From the sequence record ON470591.1: a stretch of 26,627 nt of DNA. The stretch is one strand, 5' to 3'. The notes below the pieces were generated by a model. That model had not been told where the DNA came from. It saw only the letters and a list, made by a program, of their open reading frames with translations, and searched no databases. This document shows, one piece after another, positions 1-11,397 of the stretch. Numbering within the stretch: the first letter of the stretch is position 1; each line of letters starts with the position of its first letter. A program made the translations under genes and the position numbers. The DNA is from Escherichia phage vB_EcoM-613R2.

Positions 1-120
1 ATGATTCCCAGCCAGAAACCTGCGGTAAACTCATCGTTCAGCAATATGCTGTCCGGCTTCAAAGATAAGGTGACATCATCCCTTAACAGCGCGGCCAGTT
101 CAGTTAAAGGGCTGTTCTGA
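1..120 (+). CDS. Short open frame running from the window edge to a TGA at 118-120 (39 codons); possibly the 3' end of a gene that starts outside the window
   Basis: Open frame from base 1 to a stop at 118-120; no recognisable motif; too short to judge. Not in the ORF track because it is under 60 aa. Confidence 0.2.
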   Translation: MIPSQKPAVNSSFSNMLSGFKDKVTSSLNSAASSVKGLF

Positions 121-282
121 TTTAATGCTGGCCACTCATACCTGGTAATAAGTGGTCAGTCTTAACACTCACCATTTGATTGCACCCGTGTTGACGATTT
201 GTTACTGGATATCAGACACGCTGGATAGCCAGTAGAAACATACCATTAAAATTATTACAATAATTGGTCACATGATTATCTT

Positions 283-846
283 ATGCTGAATAATAAAGAT
301 ATGAATATTAATGAACTTAAAGACTGTATTCACTATGAAGTAATCGGTAGCGAGCGTCCTTTCTCCTGGCGAAAGGCAATTGTTCGCGCAATAAAACATA
401 GAAGGGTTCGTTATTTATTTTGGTGGCGCATAGCCAAATACCTTTTTGATAAAGGCGGATACTGTCGGAAGATTGCGGGAAAAATAGAACGTTTCATTCT
501 TGATAAATATAATGTAACAGTCCCTTTAACTGTAAATATAGGGAAAGGCTTTGATATTTCTTATCTCAACAGTGTTGTTATCGGTCACAAAGTAACAATC
601 GGTGAAAATTGTTCAATTAAGCCCGGAGTAACTATTGGACTTCGCGGGGAATTTAATGATATGGATATTGTTATAGGGCATAATGTGACCATTGGTTGTA
701 ATGCCACCATTCTTGGTGGCAAAGTGCGTATAGGAAACAATGTCACAATAGGTGCTCATGCATTGGTATTGCATGATATTCCTGATGATTCAACATTCAT
801 CACTAAATTTCAGTCTGAAGTTATCTGCTCGTCCTCCCGAACATAA
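283..846 (+). CDS. Hexapeptide-repeat (left-handed beta-helix) acetyltransferase, WcaB/CysE-like
   Basis: ATG at 283. The translation carries consecutive [LIV]-G-x-x-x-x hexads ([24 protein letters not shown] ... [40 protein letters not shown]), the pattern of serine/polysaccharide O-acetyltransferases. It is the only plus-strand gene, visibly more AT-rich than its neighbours, and its 3' end overlaps the 3' end of tfa by 37 bp. Confidence 0.8.
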
Positions 847-1427
847 CCCTGATTCATCAGCTCTGGCCATACGATATCCGGAGCTGTACTGGTGTCAATT
901 CTACTCACTAATACTCTGTATTTTCTCCAGGAATCCAGTTGTGAATTTTCCTCGTTTGTTGCTATTTCAAGATTAACTGCATCCTGCAGAATTGCGATGT
1001 TATCTGTTGCTTCCTGGATCAACCTTGCCTTTTTCTCTTCCGCTTCCCGTATCCGAAACAGTTTTTCTGCTTCCTCATCATTCACCCAGGATACGCCGTC
1101 CCACTTCTGATACTCCCCTGCTGGCGACAACCAGGTGACATTCTCTGGTAGCGGTCCGAGTTCAGAAATAAACAATGCGTCCCCCGACGCCACGTCATAG
1201 ACCGTTTTACCACGATGGTCTTCAACAATATTCCACGATTCATTTTCACTGTTAAAAACTGCCACAAAGCCAGCAGGAATTTCCGGTGGGGCGATATCTG
1301 TAGAATTAGCTGGCAGCCCTGTATGAGGTGGAATATATGCGTCACCTTCACCAATAAACTCATTAGTTCCGGCCAGCAGGTTATAAATTTTTACGGTACG
1401 TGATTGTTCACTCATTCTGAATGCCAT
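810..1427 (-). CDS. tfa: Tail fiber assembly protein (lambda Tfa family)
   Basis: The N-terminus [46 protein letters not shown] matches what I recall of lambda Tfa and the E. coli cryptic-prophage Tfa proteins. Its ATG overlaps the TAA of the tail fiber gene (TAATG), directly downstream of the fiber. Confidence 0.9.
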
Positions 1428-4273
1428 TATGCAAGCCTCACAATATAATTAAATGCGATGTTTTTAACGGTGTTTTCCGCGTTACCAGCAGCGTTAACGG
1501 TGATGGTGTGTCCATGTGAACCAATCTTAACAGAGTGCGTATGAGCGCCAATACCAACAGTGTGTGCATGTGCCCCAGCACTTGTAGCGGTACCTGATAC
1601 TGAGTGGGTATGTGCGCCAGAAGAAGGCACAGTTCCATTCCCCACCACCGTGCCACTTGATGAACCATCCAGCCAGTCGAAATTCATACCGCCACTGTTT
1701 GGTCTCCTTAATGGAACGGTATGAGTATGTGCGCCAGCACTATTTGCAGTACCAGATACATTGTGGGTATGTGCACCTGTGTTATTCGTTGATTTAGTAC
1801 CGTAATCAAACGACGATGTGGTTTTCGTACCCAAATCCGTACTGGATGCGCTGGCACTGTGGGTGTGCGATTTAATGCCATCCTGTTCCTGAGACAATAC
1901 GGCCCGACCACTGGCGGGTTTGCCCTTGATTGTCCAGCCGCGCATATCTGGAATAACACCAGAAGGATAGGCAATAGCCAGTTTCGGATATGCTGCCTTA
2001 TCAAACGTCTGCCCCTGCATGATTGCATAACCTGCAGGTGGCGTATCTGATGGCCACGGCAGCGGAACACCTGGCGGAAACGCTTCAATATTTGCCGAGC
2101 CGTCAAATTTTACGCCGTTAATTGTCCTTGCCGTTTTCAGCTTTGTTGCTGTAGCAGCATTGCCGGATAGTTCGCCTGAAAGACCACCGCTGAATGTCTG
2201 TTTCGCCATCCATGTCTGAGCTTCGTCGATAATTGGCACACGTCTTGTCGTGATCGTGCGGCTTCCCGGATTTCCTGAAATGCGAACCATAAAAAAGCGG
2301 TAGTTGGCTTTACTTACAGTGCTGCGCCATACATGCATTGAGCGTCCCGAACCAGAATCATCACTCGGACCGACTGAGATGTTTATCAGGTTGCCATCAA
2401 TGACGCCCCAGTCCATACCGTCGGGAATATTGGTCATGTTATCAAGCCGAACGGTTATCAGACTGCCCGGCACAAAATCGTAGGTCTGCCAGTCCAGGCT
2501 GGTGAGCTTTGCCACAGCACCGCCGATACCCAGATTCAGGGGAAGTGAATACGAGGTGTAGACTTCCCGCCATTCGCTCCATGAGCTGCCGGTAAAGACG
2601 CGCTCAAAGGTGCGGCCTTTAAGGGTTGTACCTGTTCCGGCAGTTGTATAACGCTGCCATACATTAACACCATCAAACCGCCTCAACACTTCCAGAATGC
2701 CGAGTACAGTCACGCCGTTTCCGTCCAGTACTGGACCGTTGGTCGCTTTACCTGTAACGCTGTAAATACCTGGTGAGGTTACATCATTCAAATCACCTTC
2801 GTAATAACGACTCTCTGACTGATGACCGACTCTTAACCACGGTTCCCACTGCGGATTTGATGCATCCCAGCTTGCCGCAAGACAGCGGACATACATATTT
2901 CCACGGCGAGTGGTATAACGTTGCGTTCTTCCATAATTTCCGCCTTCGAGGATCTCAAGCATCCCCTGAGCAAAGCCGCCTTCCTCTGGATAATTGCGTT
3001 CATATGAAGCTATAGCTGAGCTACTGTTACGCCATAAACCAAGATGCTCGGCGGCTCCAAGCGTATTCAGGTCTATAGTCGTACTCAAAGGGCGGGTAGC
3101 AGATTGAGTGTGACGCCATACGCCCCACGGACCATCAGTGCCATTCCACTTATTGGCGAGTTTACGCATGTATACATTGCCGTCTCTCGTGGTAAAGCGT
3201 TGCGTACCTGCAAAATGGCCGGCAGCAAAAACCTCAAGCACACCGACAGCATTATCTTCCGGGAAATTTTTCTCCAGTGTTGCGTTGGTGGATGTTGCTT
3301 TAGACCAGATACCTGAATAAGCCTTAACAGGACCAAACGTATTCAGATCAGCATCAAGCGGCATTTCGCCATTGTTTTTCATAAACGTCAGGCTGGTAAC
3401 GCCAACATTGTCCAGAAAAGCTGATTTATCCTGGATATCTGCACCGTTCTGATTTTTCGCCAGACGTGAATTTGCGTTGTCATTTGCTGCCTTGACCGCT
3501 TTTGGCGTTGCCGCCTGCGTTTCAGACGTACTGTTAGTGGCACTACTGAGCTGAACTATCCCTTTTTGTGCCGTGGTGGCATTCTGGGCGGTATATTTTC
3601 CGTCAGCCAGGTCATATGCAGCCTTAACAGCCTTAGGCGTCGCTGCGAGCTTTTCAGACGTGCTATTGGTGGCATTACTGAGTTGAACAATGCCTTTTGA
3701 TGTTAAAGTTGCATCAGGATGATTACGTGATTGCTCATGTTTTACAATAGCTTGCTTAAGCCGCTTTGCTGAAACAGCCAGGGAATCATCTGTACCTGCA
3801 TCAATTTCTTGTTCATTAGCAAATCTTGCTACTCCAACAACAGTTTCGGTTGCGGGAGGGTTAATAAACTCAACATCACCAAATGTAATGTTTTTAGTAT
3901 CAAGATTTTTAATTGCTATATCACTTGATATTAAAGCAATTGTAGAAGATGCTTTATTTATTATTACTTGTTCTTGCGAGTATACAGCAAACAATGTTCC
4001 TTTATTTGTATACAAACCTATTGTATGGACAACATACTCATCTTTACTATCATCCTTCGCAGTTACATGAATGGTATCAGGAGAAACGACTTTGCCTCCT
4101 ATTGTGGTAAGTCGCTTTATTTCATCTGTTATTTTTGTTTGTGTGGTTGATGTGGCATAATATCTACTACCTAAACCAACAGAAACGATCTCAACTTTAT
4201 TTGTTCCAGTCTTGTTGGCATTAACCAGCGCCTTACGCCCGGCGTCAGTCATCGTAAATAATAATTTACTCAC
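1427..4273 (-). CDS. Tail fiber protein (P2 H / lambda Stf-like long fiber)
   Basis: 948 aa. GTG start at 4273 preceded by AAGGA. Two tandem copies of the phage fiber repeat ([26 protein letters not shown]), internal R(F/Y)TTR.GN.Y.R repeats, and a His-rich C-terminus with repeated G-A-H-T-H-(S/N/T)-V motifs typical of fiber receptor-binding tips. Lies between the baseplate I gene and tfa. Confidence 0.9.
3476..3718 (-). repeat. Two tandem in-frame copies of the phage tail fiber repeat inside the fiber gene
   Basis: Protein residues about 186-222 and 231-266 are near-identical ([31 protein letters not shown] versus [31 protein letters not shown]); the underlying DNA is visibly repeated. Confidence 0.8.
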
Positions 4274-4303
4274 GCTTAATTCCTTGGATTAACAAATCGC
4301 AAA

Positions 4304-4885
4304 TTAGCACTCACCAATTAATCGTACATAAGACACAGGCTGGAAAGCACCGACAATACCAACACCACCTGAAACATTGGTTGCTTGCGAAAATGTAAAT
4401 AGTGTTCTTGCCGACTTTGCACTCTTGATACTTCTTAACGTATCCTCCAACATCTCTTTCGAAGGAACAGCACCATCAAAAGAGTTAATCGAAGCAACAA
4501 TTGAGGCTGTATATGGTTCGCCAGGTGGTGATGTTTCAAACCATTCTGTTATGTTTACCTCTCCACCCAAGCTATTTACTACATCTTCAACCGCTGCCCT
4601 TGTACCCTTTATTCGCTTTGTTCGTATTATTGATTTAAAAACAGAACGCTTTAACAATACAGGCCAACTATCCCTCCATGTATCAGCATTCCATTGCCAA
4701 GCTAAATGATCGAGAACAACTGAGTCCAGGTTATCAACAACGCTATATATTTCTGTCTTATATATTAAATTGTTAATTGCTTGTAGTTCATCATCAATAG
4801 CTTTCGACATAGCTATCACGTTGGGATCGCTAGCTAAGTTAGGAGGTAAAACATCCAACAAGCTAACATTAAAGATATCAGCCAT
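4304..4885 (-). CDS. Baseplate protein, P2 gpI-like (tail protein I)
   Basis: 193 aa immediately upstream of the fiber gene and downstream of the J-like gene, with an 8 bp stop/start overlap with J. Size and position fit gpI; the call rests mainly on synteny. Confidence 0.7.
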   Translation of the reverse strand: MADIFNVSLLDVLPPNLASDPNVIAMSKAIDDELQAINNLIYKTEIYSVVDNLDSVVLDHLAWQWNADTWRDSWPVLLKRSVFKSIIRTKRIKGTRAAVEDVVNSLGGEVNITEWFETSPPGEPYTASIVASINSFDGAVPSKEMLEDTLRSIKSAKSARTLFTFSQATNVSGGVGIVGAFQPVSYVRLIGEC

Positions 4886-6002
4886 CCTCTAACCCCGCAT
4901 ACTGGCAATTTATATTTCTCTCTCTGGCGACCTGTGTCTCTCCAATCACAGTAAAAACAGGACTTGATATTTCTAATCTTTTAGCCCCAGCATTTTTTAA
5001 ACGTTGAATAATTTCATCTGGATTTATATCTCTTCCCATAACCGAACGTTGCCATTGTTTATACTCATCAATAGCTTTCTCAACCTCACTTTGAATTAAA
5101 GTTGTTCTGTTTTTGTCCGATGAGTTAATCCAGTATTTAATTATTATATCGTATTCAATGCTCTCTGGTTTCTTAACAAGAACTTTATCTGTGAATGGTC
5201 GAATATTAGTTGCAGAGAGAACGCTATTTATCTGCTCTAATAGTTCATTAGAAGGTATATCTCCGTTCTCTAACAAAGAACGGATTTCTACAATTCCGGG
5301 CGATGGTGTATATACATTCACATCTTTTATATTCTGATTGGCTGTTCTTGTCCAATATTTATAAGAATCCTCCGGCCCTGCTGTAGACAGTTTTTCCGGC
5401 GACAGTTTTATTCTTTCAGCATAATTATCATCTGACTCCGTATCAGCACCAGAATTAGATGTTGTTACATTCCTTACGCTGGAAACATACGGCAACGGAG
5501 TCACCAACTCATTTATTTGCCCTGGTAAAAAGCCATTCCCAGATAAACCAGGTATAACAGCATATCCTGAGACTGTACCAACTGTTTTCCCAGCAGGTAT
5601 TTCCAACAAAATATCTGTTTGGAAAATAACACCATTTCCAGTTGAAACTTGAGTGCCAGCAGGTATTGTATATATCCCCGATAATTTTGTTGACAGATTA
5701 AACTCAAATGTAGTCAAGGCAGATTGAGCTTCCAGCCTAGGCGTATCCGTCAGATAGCCTATATGGTCGAGATATTCACCTTCACCATATGTAAGAAGGT
5801 TTTGTTTTGCAGAAAAATCGATAGCTTTTCTTTGCTGTATAATAATCTCACACAATGATAAGATGAATAATCTACGTGGATCAGCAGGTGCTAATGTTTC
5901 ACCTGTTATACTCTCAAAAGCCCTGATTGAACGAGTTGTTATATCAGTCGGGTTAGAATCTGCGAAAGTAATATCTGGCAAACCACCACGCGGCAACGTC
6001 AT
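4878..6002 (-). CDS. Baseplate protein J (P2 gpJ / Mu gp47 family)
   Basis: 374 aa; ATG overlaps the W-like stop (ATGA). Size and position match the baseplate wedge protein J that precedes gpI and the fiber in P2/Mu-type tails. Confidence 0.8.
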   Translation of the reverse strand: MTLPRGGLPDITFADSNPTDITTRSIRAFESITGETLAPADPRRLFILSLCEIIIQQRKAIDFSAKQNLLTYGEGEYLDHIGYLTDTPRLEAQSALTTFEFNLSTKLSGIYTIPAGTQVSTGNGVIFQTDILLEIPAGKTVGTVSGYAVIPGLSGNGFLPGQINELVTPLPYVSSVRNVTTSNSGADTESDDNYAERIKLSPEKLSTAGPEDSYKYWTRTANQNIKDVNVYTPSPGIVEIRSLLENGDIPSNELLEQINSVLSATNIRPFTDKVLVKKPESIEYDIIIKYWINSSDKNRTTLIQSEVEKAIDEYKQWQRSVMGRDINPDEIIQRLKNAGAKRLEISSPVFTVIGETQVARERNINCQYAGLEDG

Positions 6003-6319
6003 TCTCTAACTCCTATCACAAGTTTTGGCCTAATAAAACCATCAGAAACGTCCGTTCTTTCAAAAGTAACAGAATGGATAATCGCTCTAGGCTCAAACTC
6101 ACTAATTTTTTGAATTATTTCTCGTGTTGCTGTAGCAATAAAAATTGGACTAGGGCTATCAACAAGACTTGAATTAATTCCTAATTTTCTGGCATATGGT
6201 ACAGTGCCAATTTGAGTATTAATAATAGTAGAGACATTTTGCAAAACTTCTTCTACAACTGTTTTGGGCGACCAATCAATCGAGTAAGAAGGTGATGATA
6301 TGGTAAACGTATTATTCAT
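5999..6319 (-). CDS. Baseplate protein W (GPW/gp25-like)
   Basis: 106 aa, 4 bp overlap with both neighbours. Size and a hydrophobic/EPR core segment resemble P2 gpW; position directly upstream of J. Confidence 0.7.
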   Translation of the reverse strand: MNNTFTISSPSYSIDWSPKTVVEEVLQNVSTIINTQIGTVPYARKLGINSSLVDSPSPIFIATATREIIQKISEFEPRAIIHSVTFERTDVSDGFIRPKLVIGVRE

Positions 6320-6783
6320 AATAATTTACCTAACGCACTTCTAGTTTTTGACTCTATATTGCCAGCAATATCAACTAATGCTTCTTTCAGAGAGGTCTGT
6401 CCGACTTCCTGTAATTTAATGCCGACGATAATCACTCGTGGATTCCCAGTTGGACCGAAATAAGTCCATGATTCCTCTATATCTGTAATTATAAAATTAC
6501 CAAAATACTGAATACCAATTACAACAGGATTTACTTCCTGAATTGATTGCATTGTCCTAAGTAATGAAAGCGCAGCCAATGGAACAATGCCAAGTGTTGT
6601 ATCCAACCGCATATTAAAACTAACTTCATCCAGATCTGGACCTATATCCTCCAGAACAGGTTTAAGCCCAATAACATCATGGCGCGCTACACGACGCTTT
6701 GACGTCCTTTTAAAATTGTTGAACGTATTCACCACTATTGATGAGGCAACAAAAGGCATTGTACCAAGCATACCCACAATCAT
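6316..6783 (-). CDS. Hypothetical protein in the baseplate module (between the V-like and W-like genes)
   Basis: 155 aa, translationally coupled on both sides (ATGA overlaps). No motif I can recognise. A gene at this position is not part of the canonical P2 V-W-J-I order. Confidence 0.6.
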   Translation of the reverse strand: MIVGMLGTMPFVASSIVVNTFNNFKRTSKRRVARHDVIGLKPVLEDIGPDLDEVSFNMRLDTTLGIVPLAALSLLRTMQSIQEVNPVVIGIQYFGNFIITDIEESWTYFGPTGNPRVIIVGIKLQEVGQTSLKEALVDIAGNIESKTRSALGKLL

Positions 6784-7400
6784 GCCTGAGCCTCCGTTGT
6801 CGGAGCGTATTCCCCCTGAGCTGTGTGATGGTGGCCTTTAGATTTAATCCCATCAACATCTATATCACCACCAACAACCTTAACATTCCCAGAAATTGTA
6901 GCTGCAACACCTCCAGCAGAAGATCCTTTCATTCCACCTTTGAAGGTTAGTAATCCTTCAACTGTAGCATTTCCGGTAATGATGGTTTCTGGAGCATCAA
7001 TAGTTACGGTTCCTGTAGCCTTAATGGTTACATCTCCGACAGCATCAACAAGGAGTAAATTAGATTCTCTGTCTATCTCAATACGAGTTCCGTTATTAAA
7101 TCTAATGACGCGTTTATTAACAGTATTAGATGGCGGCTTCTGTGTTTCATCATAAAAACTACCAAGAATAAAACCTTGTTGCGGCCCCGCGGGATGAAAG
7201 ATACACAAAACTTGCTCACCAATATCTGGCATCCAGTAATCAGCATTCTTATCTGTATTTTTCACAATAACTGATAACTTTGCCGAAGTGACGTTATCCT
7301 GATCATCGAAAGTAACTCTTGCTGTAACATCACCATCATCAATATCAGAAACAACGCCAACTCTTATAGTCTGACGTAATAATGTTTCTAAATCATTCAT
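6780..7400 (-). CDS. Baseplate spike/hub protein, P2 gpV-like
   Basis: 206 aa. The N-terminal region (VGVVSDIDDGDVTARVTFDD) and a Gly-rich C-terminal half with repeated V-x-G-x-V segments and an HHH stretch fit gpV-type spike proteins; lies upstream of the W-like gene. Confidence 0.75.
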   Translation of the reverse strand: MNDLETLLRQTIRVGVVSDIDDGDVTARVTFDDQDNVTSAKLSVIVKNTDKNADYWMPDIGEQVLCIFHPAGPQQGFILGSFYDETQKPPSNTVNKRVIRFNNGTRIEIDRESNLLLVDAVGDVTIKATGTVTIDAPETIITGNATVEGLLTFKGGMKGSSAGGVAATISGNVKVVGGDIDVDGIKSKGHHHTAQGEYAPTTEAQA

Positions 7401-7402
7401 AA

Positions 7403-8404
7403 TTAATACCCATTAATTACTCTTCGGACATCAATCGAGGTGGTATAACCACTAGTCCCAATTGAATGCACAGCTTTCGATATAAGATATTTTCCAGAAA
7501 ATGAACCGAATCCCTCCAGATTTATAGTTACACCAGCTACCAATCTGGTGTCTCCAACCAATACTAAAGATCCGGTATTTTGATATCTATTTTTAAGCCG
7601 CAAAGCAGCCTTTGCCTTACGTTTTGCTTCATCTAAATTAGCTACCAGTTTTCTTATCTTAAGATTCGACCCTTCTTCTACGGATGGATCTACCCAAGTA
7701 TACGAAAGCGACTTTCTTTTTTTAGGTACGCGATATTTGCACGTGCAACTTTTATACAAATCTGTAGATTGTGTGCTAAAGCTATATCTGATTATCTCAT
7801 CAATACCTAACGTAAGCGTAGCGATAGGATCTTTTTGCTCAAACATCTCTTGAGCAAATATTATTAATTGGCTATCAGTGACCTTTAACGACAACCCTTC
7901 ATCCTGGCAAAGTCGATGGAGAAATTTTAAATCGCTTTCCTCCATTTGATCTTCACGCGCATAATATGGATTACTATCACCATCAATAAGAAACAACAGT
8001 TCAAGGTTAGCTAATTTAGCTATAGAAGTTGCTATATCTTTAAGAGTTGTTTTTTCCCATGCATTACTTTTTAAATCACGTCTAATGCCTGATGAAACAG
8101 GAACAGAAACAGCAGTTACCTCAACCACAGAAGGTGGTCCAGAGCAAGTTATGCCATCTACCTGGAATTTCCCGCACTCAAGGACGATTTGATTTATAGG
8201 CTTAAAGCTCAAATCAATAAAATCACCCTTTTTAGGTGTCCAGTCTCCAGACCATTTCCCATCATCATTTTTTAATATAATAGAAATATCATCGACCTGA
8301 CCATCTTCATTATCTGTATAAGACATTGACAAAACATCAGGTGACATATGAGCGGTAATATTTACATTCTGATATATAACATCAAAAAGCGTTTTACGTA
8401 ACAC
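7403..8404 (-). CDS. Tail/baseplate hub protein, P2 gpD-like (late control D family)
   Basis: 333 aa. GTG start at 8404 with GGAGA upstream. Positioned between the X-like and V-like genes as in many P2/Mu-type tail modules. Assignment is by size and synteny. Confidence 0.65.
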   Translation of the reverse strand: MLRKTLFDVIYQNVNITAHMSPDVLSMSYTDNEDGQVDDISIILKNDDGKWSGDWTPKKGDFIDLSFKPINQIVLECGKFQVDGITCSGPPSVVEVTAVSVPVSSGIRRDLKSNAWEKTTLKDIATSIAKLANLELLFLIDGDSNPYYAREDQMEESDLKFLHRLCQDEGLSLKVTDSQLIIFAQEMFEQKDPIATLTLGIDEIIRYSFSTQSTDLYKSCTCKYRVPKKRKSLSYTWVDPSVEEGSNLKIRKLVANLDEAKRKAKAALRLKNRYQNTGSLVLVGDTRLVAGVTINLEGFGSFSGKYLISKAVHSIGTSGYTTSIDVRRVINGY

Positions 8405-8612
8405 TATTGCGTCTCCACGGAGGAAAATTGTTTACTGATATTGGCATAACCGGAGCATCAGGAACTTTAAGAATAATTCCCGCAGAAAAAAGCACCGTAA
8501 AGCGGTGCTCAGTATTAGCATCAATAAGAAGATAAGACAGGTACTCATTACCATACAACTTTAAAGCGATACTATCCCATGAGTCCCCTTGAACCGTTCT
8601 ATAATCATCCAA
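8394..8612 (-). CDS. Tail protein X-like (LysM-like small tail protein)
   Basis: 72 aa. TTG start at 8612 (the only start available after the upstream in-frame stop), preceded by GGAG. The motif RTVQGDSWDSIALKLYG resembles the gpX/LysM-like signature (G-D-T-L-x-x-I-A-x-x-Y-G). Confidence 0.6.
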   Translation of the reverse strand: MDDYRTVQGDSWDSIALKLYGNEYLSYLLIDANTEHRFTVLFSAGIILKVPDAPVMPISVNNFPPWRRNSVT

Positions 8613-11397
8613 AACTTAATCTCCGTTGTTGGAACATATGAGCACTCAATTTCTTCTCAAAATCAGAATATCCCGCATCTAATGCTCTTTTAGCTGCCGC
8701 CTCAGTTTCCTTTGGTGAACCAGCCGGAAGATTGATTACAGGTGAATAGGTTATTCCACCAGTCACAGCGTTAACGTTCTGGCGAGGTCCAGAAGTCCCG
8801 GCGGCAGATATCCCGTGAGGTGATAAATTTGATTGCCCGAACTTGCTTGCTATTGCATTCTGTAAGCTGTTATTCCTGCTAACACCTGATGCCAGAGTAG
8901 TCATTATTGCACCACCTGACTTTGTTAGCTGTGAGAATGGACCTTTTTTCGCGTCAGAGAACGGTAAATACTCACGTACAGAAGAAAAAACGCCTTTCAC
9001 TTCATTAATTAAAGCATTTGCTTTTGATTTTATCCCAGTGATTAACGTCTCAATTATTTTTGCGCCTGACTCACTCCAGTTTATTCCAGATAAATAAGTC
9101 GTTACAGATTGGAATGCTCTTATAAAGAGTCCAACTGGTGAAAAACGCATAAAAACAGATACCAGTGTATCTATGATTTTCTTTCCTGTTTCGCTCCAGT
9201 TAATGCCAGAAAGGTAATTTGTTGTAATTTTAAATGCTTTAATTAAGAACGGAAGCGGAGACATCCATTTAAAAGCACTAATTAATGTACTGTAAATTCT
9301 TACACCTGCCGAACTCCAGTTTATGTTGGAAAGATAATCCCATGCTTTACCAAACATAGATATAATCCATCCATTGAGGTCAAAGTTTAAGATAAAGTTT
9401 TTTATAGCCTCAAATGATTTAACTGTATATTCCTTAACAGAAGGCCAAACTCTGACAGCATAATCTCTGATCTTATCCCAATTCTGATAGAGCAATATTC
9501 CTGCGGCAACCAGCGCAGATATAGCCATCTGAATCCACCCGAAGGGTGTTAGCTTTGTCGCTACAGATAAAGCCAGCATAGCTACCCTACACGCTATAAC
9601 CACACTTTTCATGGTTAGAAACGCACCTGCCGCCATCACTATCTGAGACACAAAATTGGGGTTGTTAGCTACAAATTCACTAATTTTTGTAATCAGCGGA
9701 ACCAAAACACTAAGCGCGGCATTCAAAGCAGGTTGCAAGGCCTGACCAAAACTTAATGATGCATTGCTAGCCTGAATACGTAATTGTTTCAATCGCTCCG
9801 CATTATCTTTCGTTATGTTGGCAAAATCGCGGTCAATAACAGCACTTCCAGCTCCAAGAGATGTTGCTTTGATTCTCTGGTATTCCTTCCAGTTTTGAAT
9901 CATCGGACGAACAAAGTTCTGAACCTGCATATCGCCAAATAGTTCACCAAGTAACTTCTGATCTCCGTTCTTAGTCATTTTCATGACAGAATGCATTGCA
10001 GCTTCGAATGGATTCTTCCCTTTTTTCTGCGCTGTTGTAACAATTTTATATAAATCTACACCGAAATTTTTCTTTGCTTTTTTTAGTGTTTCAGGGGAAA
10101 GTATTTTTGCCAAAAAGTTGTTCATATTATTAGCAGCCTCATCCGAAGTTGCAGCCCCCTTGCGAGCTATCTGCAAAGCTGCACCCATCGTCGCGGCTGC
10201 TTCTTTACCTCCCATTTTTAATGCCTGGAACTGAGCACCAAGCACAGGAAGATTTTTGGCCATATCTTTAAATTCAAAGTTCCCCTCTTTCCCTGCCTGA
10301 ACCAGAATCCCCATTGCAGACTTCATTTGAGATGGATCAATCTTCAATGAGTCACTTAATGTAAATGATGCTTTCGAGACATCGAGGATATCAGAGCCAG
10401 TAGCTGTAGCTGTTCGCCCAATAGTTAGTAGATTCGCCTGAGCCTCTTTATAATCCTGCCCAGCAGCTACGAGAAAACCCTGAGCGGCCTGAATATCAGA
10501 TGCAAACTGGTTGGTAGCCGTTCCGGTAACAAGCATCGCCTGCCCCATCGCCTGAACTTCTTCCGGCTTCATATCTGCCGTAAGACCAATCATTTTGTTT
10601 TCACGATTGAAATTTGCTGCATTGTTAGCAGCAGCAAATGCACCAGCCGCTACAGCACCAGTTTGTAATCCTGACCTTACAAGTTGACTCTTTGCCTCAC
10701 CAAGATGCTCTCGCTTCAATTCACGCTGCCTTTCCAACGCGCGGTTTAACTCCTCCTGAGCACGTTTTACTGCAAGAACATTTTTCCGTGCTTCAGCCAA
10801 CGCATTTTTATAGCTGTTAATTTTATCAATACGTTGTTTTTCTAATGCCCGGTTAAGTTCCTCCTGCTGTTTTTTCACTTGCTGAACATTTGCTCTGGCT
10901 AAAGCCAAAGCCGTTCTGTAGCGGTTAACCTGCTCAACGCTACGGGCCTGAGCCTCACGATTACGATCAATGCTGGCTTTAAGCTCTTTCTCTCTTGAGG
11001 CCAAAGCTCTGGCAGATGTATCAGCTCCCTGATAGGCAGACTTTAAAGCGGCCAGTTCTTCACGCTGAGAACGTAGTGATGCTCGTAAATTCGATGAATG
11101 TGTTTTTGCCTTCTCAAAGTCACGAAGCATCGCTCTGGTTGGATTGGCCGTGTTTTTTATTTGCTTCTGTAACTCTTCAACGCGAGCGGCAGCTTTATGA
11201 TATTCGAGGGCAGTCTGTCCAACCTTTACTTTTACAGATTGTAGCTTTTGAATTTCCCCATGTTCTTTCGTTAATCCAGCAAGCTCGGCATTTAATTTAG
11301 CAACAGCCTGATTAGCTGTAGTAAAACTTTTGGGGAGAGAGGCGGCAACTTTGCCGCCAATTTCAAAAGCCAGCTTAAAGTTCTTATTGCTGGCCAT
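8605..11397 (-). CDS. Tail tape measure protein
   Basis: 930 aa, the longest ORF after the chaperone pair. Coiled-coil-type N-terminal region rich in Q/E/K/R/A/L with internal repeats, hydrophobic central segments, and three tandem repeats of about 40 aa near the C-terminal third. Confidence 0.9.
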   Translation of the reverse strand: MASNKNFKLAFEIGGKVAASLPKSFTTANQAVAKLNAELAGLTKEHGEIQKLQSVKVKVGQTALEYHKAAARVEELQKQIKNTANPTRAMLRDFEKAKTHSSNLRASLRSQREELAALKSAYQGADTSARALASREKELKASIDRNREAQARSVEQVNRYRTALALARANVQQVKKQQEELNRALEKQRIDKINSYKNALAEARKNVLAVKRAQEELNRALERQRELKREHLGEAKSQLVRSGLQTGAVAAGAFAAANNAANFNRENKMIGLTADMKPEEVQAMGQAMLVTGTATNQFASDIQAAQGFLVAAGQDYKEAQANLLTIGRTATATGSDILDVSKASFTLSDSLKIDPSQMKSAMGILVQAGKEGNFEFKDMAKNLPVLGAQFQALKMGGKEAAATMGAALQIARKGAATSDEAANNMNNFLAKILSPETLKKAKKNFGVDLYKIVTTAQKKGKNPFEAAMHSVMKMTKNGDQKLLGELFGDMQVQNFVRPMIQNWKEYQRIKATSLGAGSAVIDRDFANITKDNAERLKQLRIQASNASLSFGQALQPALNAALSVLVPLITKISEFVANNPNFVSQIVMAAGAFLTMKSVVIACRVAMLALSVATKLTPFGWIQMAISALVAAGILLYQNWDKIRDYAVRVWPSVKEYTVKSFEAIKNFILNFDLNGWIISMFGKAWDYLSNINWSSAGVRIYSTLISAFKWMSPLPFLIKAFKITTNYLSGINWSETGKKIIDTLVSVFMRFSPVGLFIRAFQSVTTYLSGINWSESGAKIIETLITGIKSKANALINEVKGVFSSVREYLPFSDAKKGPFSQLTKSGGAIMTTLASGVSRNNSLQNAIASKFGQSNLSPHGISAAGTSGPRQNVNAVTGGITYSPVINLPAGSPKETEAAAKRALDAGYSDFEKKLSAHMFQQRRLSFG
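9001..9339 (-). repeat. Three tandem in-frame repeats of about 120 bp within the tape measure gene
   Basis: Protein copies carry the motif YLS.INWS..G..I..TL.S.F...SP.....I.AF, three times in succession. Confidence 0.75.
10714..10926 (-). repeat. Tandem in-frame repeat of about 105 bp (two copies) within the tape measure gene
   Basis: Protein copies (INRYRTALALARANVQQVKKQQEELNRALEKQR versus INSYKNALAEARKNVLAVKRAQEELNRALERQR) are adjacent; the DNA is correspondingly repeated. Confidence 0.75.

Follow-up and report, generated by a model that had tools for sequence, protein, structure and literature searches.

A phage-plasmid tail fibre with a lineage-specific anchor and a distal part probably acquired as one block from a P2-like prophage

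Introduction

Mosaic fibres with shared gp37, Stf and gpH modules have been known since 1992, and the HxH iron sites since 2010. The classic case of tail fibre genes transferred horizontally between unrelated phages is the P2 gpH/gpG locus (Haggard-Ljungquist et al. 1992, reference 35 of PMC9594776). The structure of the T4 gp37 tip (PDB 2XGF) is credited in PMC6957217 to Bartual et al. 2010; residues H929 and H931 of gp37 are iron ligands and are essential (PMC6957217).

The locus analysed here is the tail fibre locus of Escherichia phage vB_EcoM-613R2, contained in a stretch of 26,627 nucleotides (record ON470591.1; hereafter the window). With the T4 gp37 tip it shares a collar and a needle, the C-terminal sequence and seven HxH motifs that occupy corresponding positions, but the apex of this fibre has no relationship to that of T4, whose residues ~932-965 make the contact with OmpC or LPS, the chaperone is of the lambda Tfa type instead of gp38, and the gp37-type module is borne by a P2-type fibre of a temperate phage-plasmid. 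With lambda Stf (orf-401/orf-314) it has in common the order of the genes (fibre, then tfa), a Tfa that is 81% identical and a C-terminal region with 66% identity across 257 columns, whereas the lambda tip is longer, with extra repeat units, and the N-terminal two thirds are unrelated save for the Phage_fiber_2 repeat. For the P2 gpH/gpG genes of Peduoviruses, P2-like prophage loci match fibre residues 266-948, tfa and the passenger gene downstream with a DNA identity of 96-100%; the N-terminal 122 residues, however, are dissimilar to gpH, and the baseplate is of the phage-plasmid type. The layout of the Mu G-segment and the P1 C-segment (S/U genes and a Gin/Cin-type invertase) is found exactly in the relatives of the plasmid, and the window retains a Phage_fiber_2 repeat that matches Mu S, but the invertible segment and the invertase are absent here except for a relic of ~30 nt. 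Finally, the three central repeats fall in the NCBI 'pyocin knob domain' family, as in the R-type pyocin fibre 6CL5, the likeness being limited to single domains. The fibre is a well-documented but ordinary case of host-recognition module swapping, and it leaves current understanding unchanged. The overall explanation, namely a native anchor, a single P2-like cassette import and the loss of an invertible segment, is in our view very probable.

Results and Discussion

The window belongs to an E. coli phage-plasmid

The window belongs to an E. coli phage-plasmid of ~48 kb whose tail is of the myovirus (contractile) type, and a near-identical circular plasmid of 48.5 kb combines RepA, ParA and ParB with genes for terminase, portal, capsid, sheath, tube, baseplate and lysis. 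The plasmid backbone was detected in 71 of 5,426 complete E. coli genomes; all of its 72 matches were on plasmids and none was chromosomal, and 26 of the 71 backbone-positive genomes carry this fibre at an identity of at least 98.8%. The SSU5 supergroup was considered as a name for the family and was dropped, pSLy3 being SSU5 and none of the sources consulted linking pSLy3 to the family. In the literature, vB_EcoM-473R2 is named by one paper only, which lists it as a ParB carrier. The features of the locus are collected in Table 1.

Table 1. Features of the fibre locus (positions in the window; aa numbers refer to the fibre unless stated otherwise)
Feature	Position	Strand	Remarks
Relic of a DNA invertase gene (hin/gin type), 3′ end	1..29	minus	left end of backbone homology
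Putative imported cassette, 3,450 bp: gpU relic, acetyltransferase gene, tfa and fibre aa 266-948	30..3479		
Relic of the P2-type tail gene gpU, final ~30 codons	30..120	plus	left end of the cassette
Left-handed beta-helix (hexapeptide) O-acetyltransferase gene, cassette passenger	283..846	plus	Pfam Hexapep E 1e-12
tfa, tail fibre assembly chaperone of lambda Tfa type	810..1427	minus	Pfam Caudo_TAP (PF02413) E 1e-39
Tail fibre gene, 948 aa	1427..4273	minus	GTG start, AAGGA Shine-Dalgarno 7 nt upstream
Needle, seven HxH motifs, aa 803-922	1508..1867	minus	aligned to gp37 iron ligands
Hypervariable apex of tip, aa 854-885	1619..1714	minus	32 residues
Collar domain, aa 735-782	1928..2071	minus	Pfam PF07484 E 3.3e-10, 40.2 bits vs cut-off 24
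Conserved linker, aa 716-732, older junction between modules in the P2-like gene pool	2078..2128	minus	
Central module, aa 296-715, with three ~90-aa knob repeats in tandem and an additional beta domain	2129..3388	minus	
Two Phage_fiber_2 repeats, aa 192-221 and 236-265	3479..3698	minus	Pfam PF03406 E 4e-41
Right-hand crossover zone, aa 248-265	3480..3530	minus	gene nt 744-794, second Phage_fiber_2 repeat
AT-rich lineage-specific N-terminal anchor, aa 1-173	3755..4273	minus	GC 0.36, GC3 0.22

Composition of the fibre gene

In 300-bp windows the GC content of the fibre gene was 0.32-0.34 at positions 3751-4200 and 0.49-0.54 at positions 1651-3300. The segment encoding residues 1-173 (the first ~520 nt) had a GC of 0.363 and a GC3 of 0.225, and the values were 0.497 and 0.464 for residues 266-718, 0.499 and 0.409 for residues 719-948, and 0.456 and 0.413 for tfa; the GC3 of the baseplate genes gpI, gpJ and gpW is 0.29, 0.28 and 0.20, respectively. 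The GC3 of the first 173 fibre codons differed from that of the remainder (chi-square 25.9, p = 3.5e-7). The initial annotation had described the first ~450 bp of the gene as AT-rich, like the baseplate genes, and the distal fibre and tfa as GC-richer. The second statement is borne out by the GC and GC3 of each segment; the AT-rich start is confirmed too, but the step is located further in, at gene nt ~525-600. The composition had also been taken as the signature of a swapped region. A distal region was very probably swapped in, but the GC step is not the footprint of the latest swap, and its equation with the swap junction was rejected: it lies ~150-200 nt before the latest crossover (gene nt 744-794), and a step at nt ~600 is common to every fibre variant of the plasmid family. 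As proposed for a mosaic gene, the composition is not uniform, and full-length fibre matches were confined to the same plasmid lineage.

The N-terminal anchor is shared by the plasmid lineage

The N-terminus of the fibre was 86-93% identical in all phage-plasmid relatives irrespective of their distal part, in alignments that span from residue 1 (residue 8 in JE86) to residues 231-296; for example, the fibre of the ATCC 25922 plasmid was 92% identical over residues 1-270. BLASTP revealed no P2 gpH-like similarity before residue 123, and the P2-type N-terminal domain PF12571 scored below its Pfam cut-off in the fibre (16.7 vs 23 bits). The two Phage_fiber_2 copies, which form a direct repeat of 88 nt (D1; 80% identical, spacing 132 nt), are GC-richer than the anchor, yet they are backbone sequence; this region also matches Mu S (8JU3, 5YVQ) and lambda orf-401. 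The first ~265 residues of the fibre would be native to the plasmid lineage, and the gpI/gpJ baseplate of the plasmid itself is the presumed docking site of the AT-rich anchor.

The distal fibre lies in a block shared with P2-like prophages

When compared with Yersinia phage vB_YpM_41, the backbone homology stopped at position 29 (as read in L002, a near-identical sister plasmid of the one in the window), up to which the identity was 98.9%, and resumed at position 3480, inside the fibre repeat. No backbone breakpoints other than these two were found. Positions 1-29 match positions 1695-1723 of locus L001, i.e., the final codons of the annotated hin gene of vB_YpM_41, and the translation of positions 30-120, NSSFSNMLSGFKDKVTSSLNSAASSVKGLF followed by a stop, matches the C-terminus of gpU of a P2-like prophage (L006). 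RefSeq annotates a pseudogene at this gpU relic. At the other end, the informative sites of a three-way alignment were P2-like up to position 3479, mixed at 3480-3529 and YpM_41-like from ~3530 onwards. The cassette between both breakpoints formed one continuous alignment, 96.0% identical to chromosomal P2-like prophages (H274, H275), and ~60 further chromosomes matched at least 80% of its length. Positions 200-2500 (2.3 kb) were 99-100% identical to the CFSAN018748 prophage, a P2-like prophage, but a patch of 73-79% identity was observed at 2500-2800 in the best prophage; there, the P2-like phage P2SIDE7 was 100% identical. Since no prophage among the matches listed was identical throughout the block, and given this patch, the donor might have been a recombinant outside these matches, or patching might have occurred later.

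The analysis demonstrates the module boundaries, the relics, the type of the donor and the homology of the tip. As part of the whole explanation, it is very likely that fibre residues 266-948, tfa, the acetyltransferase gene and the gpU fragment were taken as one block from a P2-like prophage. One recombination event with a P2-like prophage in the same host species would have delivered everything beyond residue ~265. The right-hand crossover would have been homologous, confined to 50 bp in the conserved Phage_fiber_2 repeat, and the left-hand join illegitimate, with the end of the plasmid invertase gene joined to the end of the donor gpU.

The relatives carry at the fibre locus the fibre gene, tfa, an inverted tfa′ and fibre tip, and the invertase gene. 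No inverted repeats of at least 18 nt were found in positions 1-4400 of the window, and the invertase of the invertible segment is reduced here to the ~30-nt relic. The recombination event would have removed the ancestral invertible fibre segment plus the invertase, so that a switchable fibre with two specificities became fixed. The 32 hypervariable residues at the needle apex would determine the fixed specificity.

The central module

The central module was 93-100% identical at the DNA level to Peduovirus fibres (93% to P2SIDE7 and PhiR44_2 over gene nt 704-2156) and 57-61% identical in amino acids to gp37 of some T-even phages. Self-BLASTP detected no internal repeats in the centre at E < 0.01, but direct alignment did reveal three knob repeats that are 36-40% identical to one another, and the homologues of this module carry the NCBI name 'pyocin knob domain-containing'. 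In a Foldseek search, an AlphaFold2 model of the centre (pLDDT 73.7) matched phage receptor-binding proteins and the R1 pyocin fibre 6CL5, the latter with an E-value of 3e-6, ~14% identity and a global TM-score of 0.20; these modelled matches would support a relationship at the level of domains only. The sequence shared with PhiR44_2 and P2SIDE7 runs up to the linker (KTAR-IN-V-FDG) and diverges after it, and the similarity to locus L007 and to lambda begins at the linker (FP-G--PWPSD) and continues onward.

The tip aligns with the receptor-binding tip of T4 gp37

Fibre residues 716-948 aligned with the receptor-binding tip of T4 gp37 (2XGF) with an E-value of 3e-82 and 62% identity over 233 columns, the collar matching domain D10, the collar of gp37. 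An AlphaFold2 monomer model of this region (56-sequence alignment) gave a pLDDT of 45.7 and a pTM of 0.20, low values that are expected for an intertwined trimer, and the fold was compared by means of sequence homology to 2XGF and not by means of this model. The initial annotation had noted five G-A-H-(T/A)-H-x-V units and one H-G-H as motifs of the metal-binding type. The five units (at residues 833, 847, 886, 900 and 909) and the H-G-H (at 920) were found, but an S-H-T-H-S at residues 803-805 brings the number of HxH motifs to seven, not six, with 14 His in residues 803-922; in 20,000 shuffles of residues 800-948 the mean was 1.2 HxH, the maximum 6, and seven were never reached. All 14 His align with those of gp37 (H883/885, 915/917, 929/931, 966/968, 980/982, 989/991 and 998/1000), and they are 96-100% conserved among 56 homologues. 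Because they pair one by one with the seven HxH motifs through which gp37 coordinates iron, the units are of the metal-binding kind, as had been suggested, and the motifs of the needle are predicted to bind iron. The fibre would be a trimer that ends in a needle of the T4-gp37/lambda-Stf type, held by seven iron ions at the HxH motifs.

The apex of the tip departs from this pattern, with only 4 of 34 residues identical to T4 over residues 850-883. Among the 56 homologues the column entropy was ~2.1 bits at the apex vs 0.3 bits or less in the flanks. The apex is bordered by 63-nt direct repeats (1556-1618 and 1715-1777) that encode GAHTHxVSGTAxSAGAHxHTV. Residues 854-885 are presumed to be the receptor contact, and by analogy the receptor would be an outer-membrane porin or LPS.

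Alternative explanations

The initial annotation had suggested that the receptor specificity came from a lambdoid or T-even-like source. Close to this view would be a history of separate acquisitions, in which the P2-like centre came from a Peduovirus and the tip and tfa from a lambdoid or T-even phage. Centre and tip are indeed separable in the wider gene pool, PhiR44_2 and P2SIDE7 sharing the centre only and L007 sharing only the tip, tfa and the acetyltransferase gene, and the tip DNA of lambdoid phages is 77-89% identical. Such a history is nevertheless highly improbable: one P2-like prophage carries centre, tip, tfa, acetyltransferase gene and gpU fragment side by side, with 99-100% identity across the centre/tip junction, the lambdoid and T-even copies are far more distant (64-89% DNA identity; T4 gp37 and lambda Stf themselves share 62-66% of the amino acids), and the backbone has just two breakpoints. 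The immediate donor was, instead, a P2-like (Peduovirus-type) prophage that already bore a lambda/T4-type tip. As identity per se is symmetrical with respect to direction, the cassette could also have moved from the phage-plasmid into P2-like prophages. We give this reverse transfer a negligible probability. In the prophages gpU is an intact gene within its operon, but in the plasmid it is a truncated, functionless 3′ fragment, and the invertase gene is truncated here but intact in the plasmid relatives. In addition, the GC of the block without the acetyltransferase gene (0.46-0.50) suits P2-like fibres, unlike that of the plasmid tail genes (0.36-0.40), and the carriers are ~60 chromosomal prophages of diverse sequence as opposed to one near-clonal plasmid lineage.

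Two further readings concern the composition step and the state of the locus. Gly, Ala, His and Thr abound in the distal fibre and raise the GC at codon positions 1 and 2, the composition step is common to all family variants, and it does not fall on the latest crossover, so that amino acid content or local selection alone, with no horizontal origin, might account for the step. This is scarcely credible, because GC3, which is mostly independent of amino acid choice, doubles from 0.22 to 0.41-0.46, and the foreign origin is proven independently by the homology breakpoints. The swap left pseudogene scars, and this fibre occurs in a single phage record, which is no isolated virion but a partial prophage predicted over 20.6 kb; this would suit a dead remnant of a defective plasmid-borne prophage whose role in adsorption has been lost. 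We consider this very unlikely, since the 948-codon ORF, tfa and the entire tail and head gene set are intact, the fibre is conserved at 98.8-100% across 26 genomes, and the related Yersinia phages vB_YpM_39, _41 and _44 (host Yersinia pestis EV76-CN) were deposited as complete circular genomes of ~49 kb.

With the import of a single P2-like cassette as the preferred explanation, the fibre would be a natural example of the rules for re-targeting phages and pyocins: the lineage-specific anchor is retained, the matching chaperone moves along, and the crossovers are located in the Phage_fiber_2 repeat or in the TARxINGVxFDG linker. It would also document gene flow from integrated P2-like prophages to a phage-plasmid whose E. 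coli carriers are mostly human clinical isolates, accompanied by the loss of a phase-variable host-range switch.

The chaperone and the passenger acetyltransferase

Lambda-type Tfa and T4 gp38 are functionally analogous (cited in PMC6957217). Here, tfa begins at the fibre stop codon, so that a chaperone gene is immediately downstream of the fibre gene. The product scored 136 bits with PF02413 (cut-off 22.1) and was 99.0% identical to the Tfa of a P2-like prophage; with 80.9% identity to lambda Tfa over residues 1-188, it is near-lambda, as first annotated. No NCBIfam models were found for the fibre or for Tfa. The fibre probably depends on Tfa, and the lambda-type Tfa of the cassette would fold the gp37/Stf-type tip.

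The acetyltransferase gene (GC 0.37) and tfa converge with their 3′ ends overlapping by 37 bp. The NCBIfam matches of its product (EpsC-, CysE- and WcaB-like) were all below the cut-offs, and a PADLOC search gave no match. It is conceivable, though unlikely, that needle tip, Tfa and O-acetyltransferase constitute one mobile cassette that both recognises and modifies the receptor. If so, the acetyltransferase would alter the surface polysaccharide or LPS bound by the fibre, lysogens would be shielded from superinfection, released particles would not be lost on lysogen debris, and capture of the cassette would have allowed a clinical phage-plasmid lineage to drop its invertase-driven two-state host range. 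The observed link between tip, Tfa and acetyltransferase is a physical one, with 99-100% co-identity in the prophages and the plasmid, and the acetyltransferase itself is 99.4% identical in amino acids to the prophage copy.

Phage-plasmid context of the fibre gene

A 48.5-kb circular E. coli plasmid (NZ_CP024865.1) carries a fibre gene 100% identical to that of the window, and since this plasmid encodes RepA, ParA and ParB as well as terminase, portal, capsid, sheath, tube, baseplate and lysis genes, it is a phage-plasmid. Of 5,426 complete E. coli genomes, 71 contain the backbone adjoining the fibre gene (window 3600-4900); its 72 matches are without exception on plasmids, none being on a chromosome. 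In PLSDB, 59 plasmids have this backbone next to the fibre gene. Relatives of 49 kb are on deposit as the Yersinia phages vB_YpM_39, _41 and _44, the host of close relatives being given as Yersinia pestis, and the reference strain ATCC 25922 also has one. With E. coli as host, the GC content of the backbone is only ~0.36-0.42. The start codon of the fibre gene is probably the GTG at 4273, preceded by an AAGGA Shine-Dalgarno sequence 7 nt upstream (window 4252-4273); in the RefSeq relative JE86 it is annotated from an ATG at codon 8 instead.

Genes and gene relics around the fibre gene (window positions)
Feature	Position	Strand	Remark
Tape measure protein gene	8605-11397	-	Tail gene run
gpD-like gene	7403-8404	-	Tail gene run
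gpV-like gene	6780-7400	-	Tail gene run
gpW-like gene	5999-6319	-	Tail gene run
gpJ gene	4878-6002	-	Tail gene run
gpI gene	4304-4885	-	Pfam Tail_P2_I
Fibre gene, 948 aa	1427-4273	-	Adjoins tail run, before tfa
tfa	810-1427	-	After fibre gene
Hexapeptide acetyltransferase gene	283-846	+	Beyond tfa
P2 gpU relic, last ~30 residues (NSSFSNMLSGFKDKVTSSLNSAASSVKGLF*)	30-120	+	gpU intact in prophages; RefSeq pseudogene
hin-type invertase gene relic, last 29 nt	1-29	-	Gene intact in vB_YpM_41

A single cassette from the P2-like fibre pool

When window 1-6000 was compared by BLAST with the reference loci, two clean patterns were obtained: vB_YpM_41 matched window 3480-6000 with 95.6% identity, and a chromosomal P2-like prophage (L006) matched window 30-3570 in a single 3,544-bp alignment (91.9%). 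Searched for in all complete E. coli genomes, window 30-3479 turned up in one piece in 88 of them: members of the plasmid lineage, with 98.9-100% identity, and about 60 chromosomes, of which the best reached 96.0%. The best prophage, CFSAN018748, is 99-100% identical over window 200-2500, a stretch that spans the acetyltransferase gene, tfa, the fibre tip and the tip/centre boundary without a break. Over window 2500-2800 (fibre aa ~492-591, the third knob repeat) its identity is 73-79%, and here the P2-like phage P2SIDE7 is 100% identical; past this patch, up to window 3500, CFSAN018748 is again 91-98% identical. The patch points to mosaicism on a fine scale, resembling gene conversion, among the P2-like fibres. 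From the identity pattern of CFSAN018748 and P2SIDE7 it follows that the cassette was drawn from a P2-like fibre pool that is itself finely mosaic.

In the P2-like prophages that bear the cassette (L003, L006, L007 and L014), the FI-FII-E-T-U tail operon is convergent with G-H. In P24A7b (L005, taken for contrast) the sheath gene follows G and is co-directional with it, the order of canonical P2; relative to P2, the tail-gene block of the donors is therefore inverted.

Junctions and direction of the transfer

In a three-way alignment of the right junction, the informative sites were P2-like up to 3479, mixed at 3480-3529 and backbone-like from ~3530. The 50-bp mixed zone corresponds to aa 248-265. 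The fibre has a pair of Phage_fiber_2 repeats (Pfam PF03406, E 4e-41), which form an 88-nt direct repeat with 80% identity, and the zone lies within the second of them; the motif is also found in Mu S and lambda orf-401. The right-hand join was homologous. On the left, identity with the vB_YpM_41 backbone (98.9%) ends at window 29, and the join was illegitimate. The invertase and gpU relics lie back to back in window 1-120, with a microhomology of at most 1 nt at the join. That both genes are truncated establishes that the cassette moved from the prophage into the plasmid.

At this site vB_YpM_41, the ATCC 25922 plasmid and pP136-7 have a common layout: fibre gene, tfa, inverted tfa', inverted alternative fibre tip, recombinase/invertase and then repA, which makes the locus an invertible host-range segment of the Mu G or P1 C type. 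No inverted repeats of at least 18 nt were found in window 1-4400. Plasmids FDAARGOS_1281 (L009, 3415-7650) and pMB9272_3 (L010, 3403-7638) have a third layout, which lacks the invertase and has two fibre genes: a gene for a 792-aa fibre is followed by a small ORF, by the gene for a second tail protein, which in pMB9272_3 is a pseudogene, and by tfa. Because this layout occurs in the same plasmid family, the fibre locus has been remodelled at least twice. All family variants have aa 1 to ~231-296 in common (86-93% identity) and diverge past the Phage_fiber_2 repeats. The P2 cassette variant was carried by 26 of the 71 genomes with 98.8-100% identity, mostly, among the hosts listed, human isolates.

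GenBank already contains the exact sequence under a tail fibre annotation, and since the work of Haggard-Ljungquist et al. (1992; reference in PMC9594776) it has been known that P2 gpH, lambda Stf, T4 gp37 and the S protein of Mu or P1 have modules in common. What is new here is the precise reconstruction of one event, in which a single 3.45-kb cassette passed from a P2-like prophage to a phage-plasmid by a crossover in a Phage_fiber_2 repeat, leaving scars of gpU and the invertase gene, with loss of the invertible host-range segment.

GC step and crossover do not coincide

The initial annotation had read the fibre as an AT-rich anchor with a swapped, GC-richer distal part; the observation itself was confirmed, and its interpretation was supported in part. 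The GC content is 0.32-0.34 at window 3751-4200 versus 0.49-0.54 at 1651-3300, and GC3 rises from 0.225 in codons 1-173 to 0.464 in codons 266-718, with 0.409 in codons 719-948 (chi-square 25.9, p = 3.5e-7), compared with 0.413 for tfa and 0.20-0.29 for the baseplate genes. Nevertheless, the step is not the swap crossover, since all family fibres go from GC ~0.33-0.41 to ~0.50-0.56 at nt ~600, independently of the distal part. The last crossover lies 150-200 nt beyond the step, which is the border between a lineage-specific anchor and a promiscuous fibre part that starts at the Phage_fiber_2 repeats.

Modules of the imported part of the fibre

The centre (aa 296-715) consists of three tandem ~90-aa repeats (36-40% mutual identity) with the signature D-L-N...G-x-L-E-V...Q-R-[YF]-T-T...W..W, followed by a further beta-rich domain. 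NCBI names its homologues 'pyocin knob domain-containing protein', and its AF2 model (mean pLDDT 73.7) had its best PDB matches in receptor-binding proteins of phages and in 6CL5, the fibre of the R1 pyocin (E 3e-6); global TM-scores were low. Several T-even phages, JK23, PYps14T and DalCa among them, have the module in their gp37 (57-61% aa identity). PhiR44_2 and P2SIDE7 have the centre in common with the window and diverge from there on, and the P2-like prophage locus L007 and lambda share only the part that comes next; the linker (aa 716-732) is the older module border within the P2-like pool.

The tip (aa 732-948) corresponds to the collar and needle of T4 gp37 (2XGF, E 2.8e-82; 144 of 233 columns identical), and all 14 of its His residues align with gp37 H883/885, 915/917, 929/931, 966/968, 980/982, 989/991 and 998/1000. 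The T4 needle holds seven iron atoms along its length, H929 and H931 are essential iron ligands, and apex residues 933-949 are required for function (PMC6957217; PMC11705849); it was the 2XGF structure that made the HxH iron sites known. The five GAH(T/A)HxV units and the HGH counted initially are present, but a seventh HxH, at 803-805, had been missed. When the C-terminal 149 aa were shuffled 20,000 times, HxH motifs averaged 1.2 and numbered 6 at most, never the observed 7. Across 56 homologues of the tip, conservation of the His residues is 96-100%, and the entropy of the scaffold does not exceed 0.3 bits, against a mean of 2.1 bits for residues 856-885; over aa 850-883, only 4 of 34 residues agree with T4. 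This variable apex (window 1619-1714) is flanked by 63-nt direct repeats encoding GAHTHxVSGTAxSAGAHxHTV, which fits the idea of Tetart et al. (1998), cited in PMC10879196, that conserved His-box motifs are where T-even phages recombine to exchange adhesins. Tfa, described initially as near-lambda, is indeed 80.9% identical to lambda Tfa.

The fibre is a mosaic, and each module is homologous to characterised fibre parts. By analogy with T4, lambda, P2 and Mu we infer that the N-terminal anchor would join the fibre trimer to the plasmid's own baseplate, that the knobs would form the shaft, and that Tfa would aid trimerisation of the needle, which may be stiffened by seven Fe(II) ions with six His per ion and whose apex would bind a putative receptor.

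The acetyltransferase passenger gene

The hexapeptide-repeat O-acetyltransferase gene (GC 0.37) is convergent with tfa, their 3' ends overlapping by 37 bp (810-846). A PADLOC search gave no match, and NCBIfam gave EpsC, CysE and WcaB matches, all below the cut-offs; the protein belongs to PHROG 2154, a family of unknown function. Its gene is located between gpG and gpU, a variable passenger-gene position in P2-like phages, and accompanies the tip and tfa in P2-like prophages with 99-100% identity.
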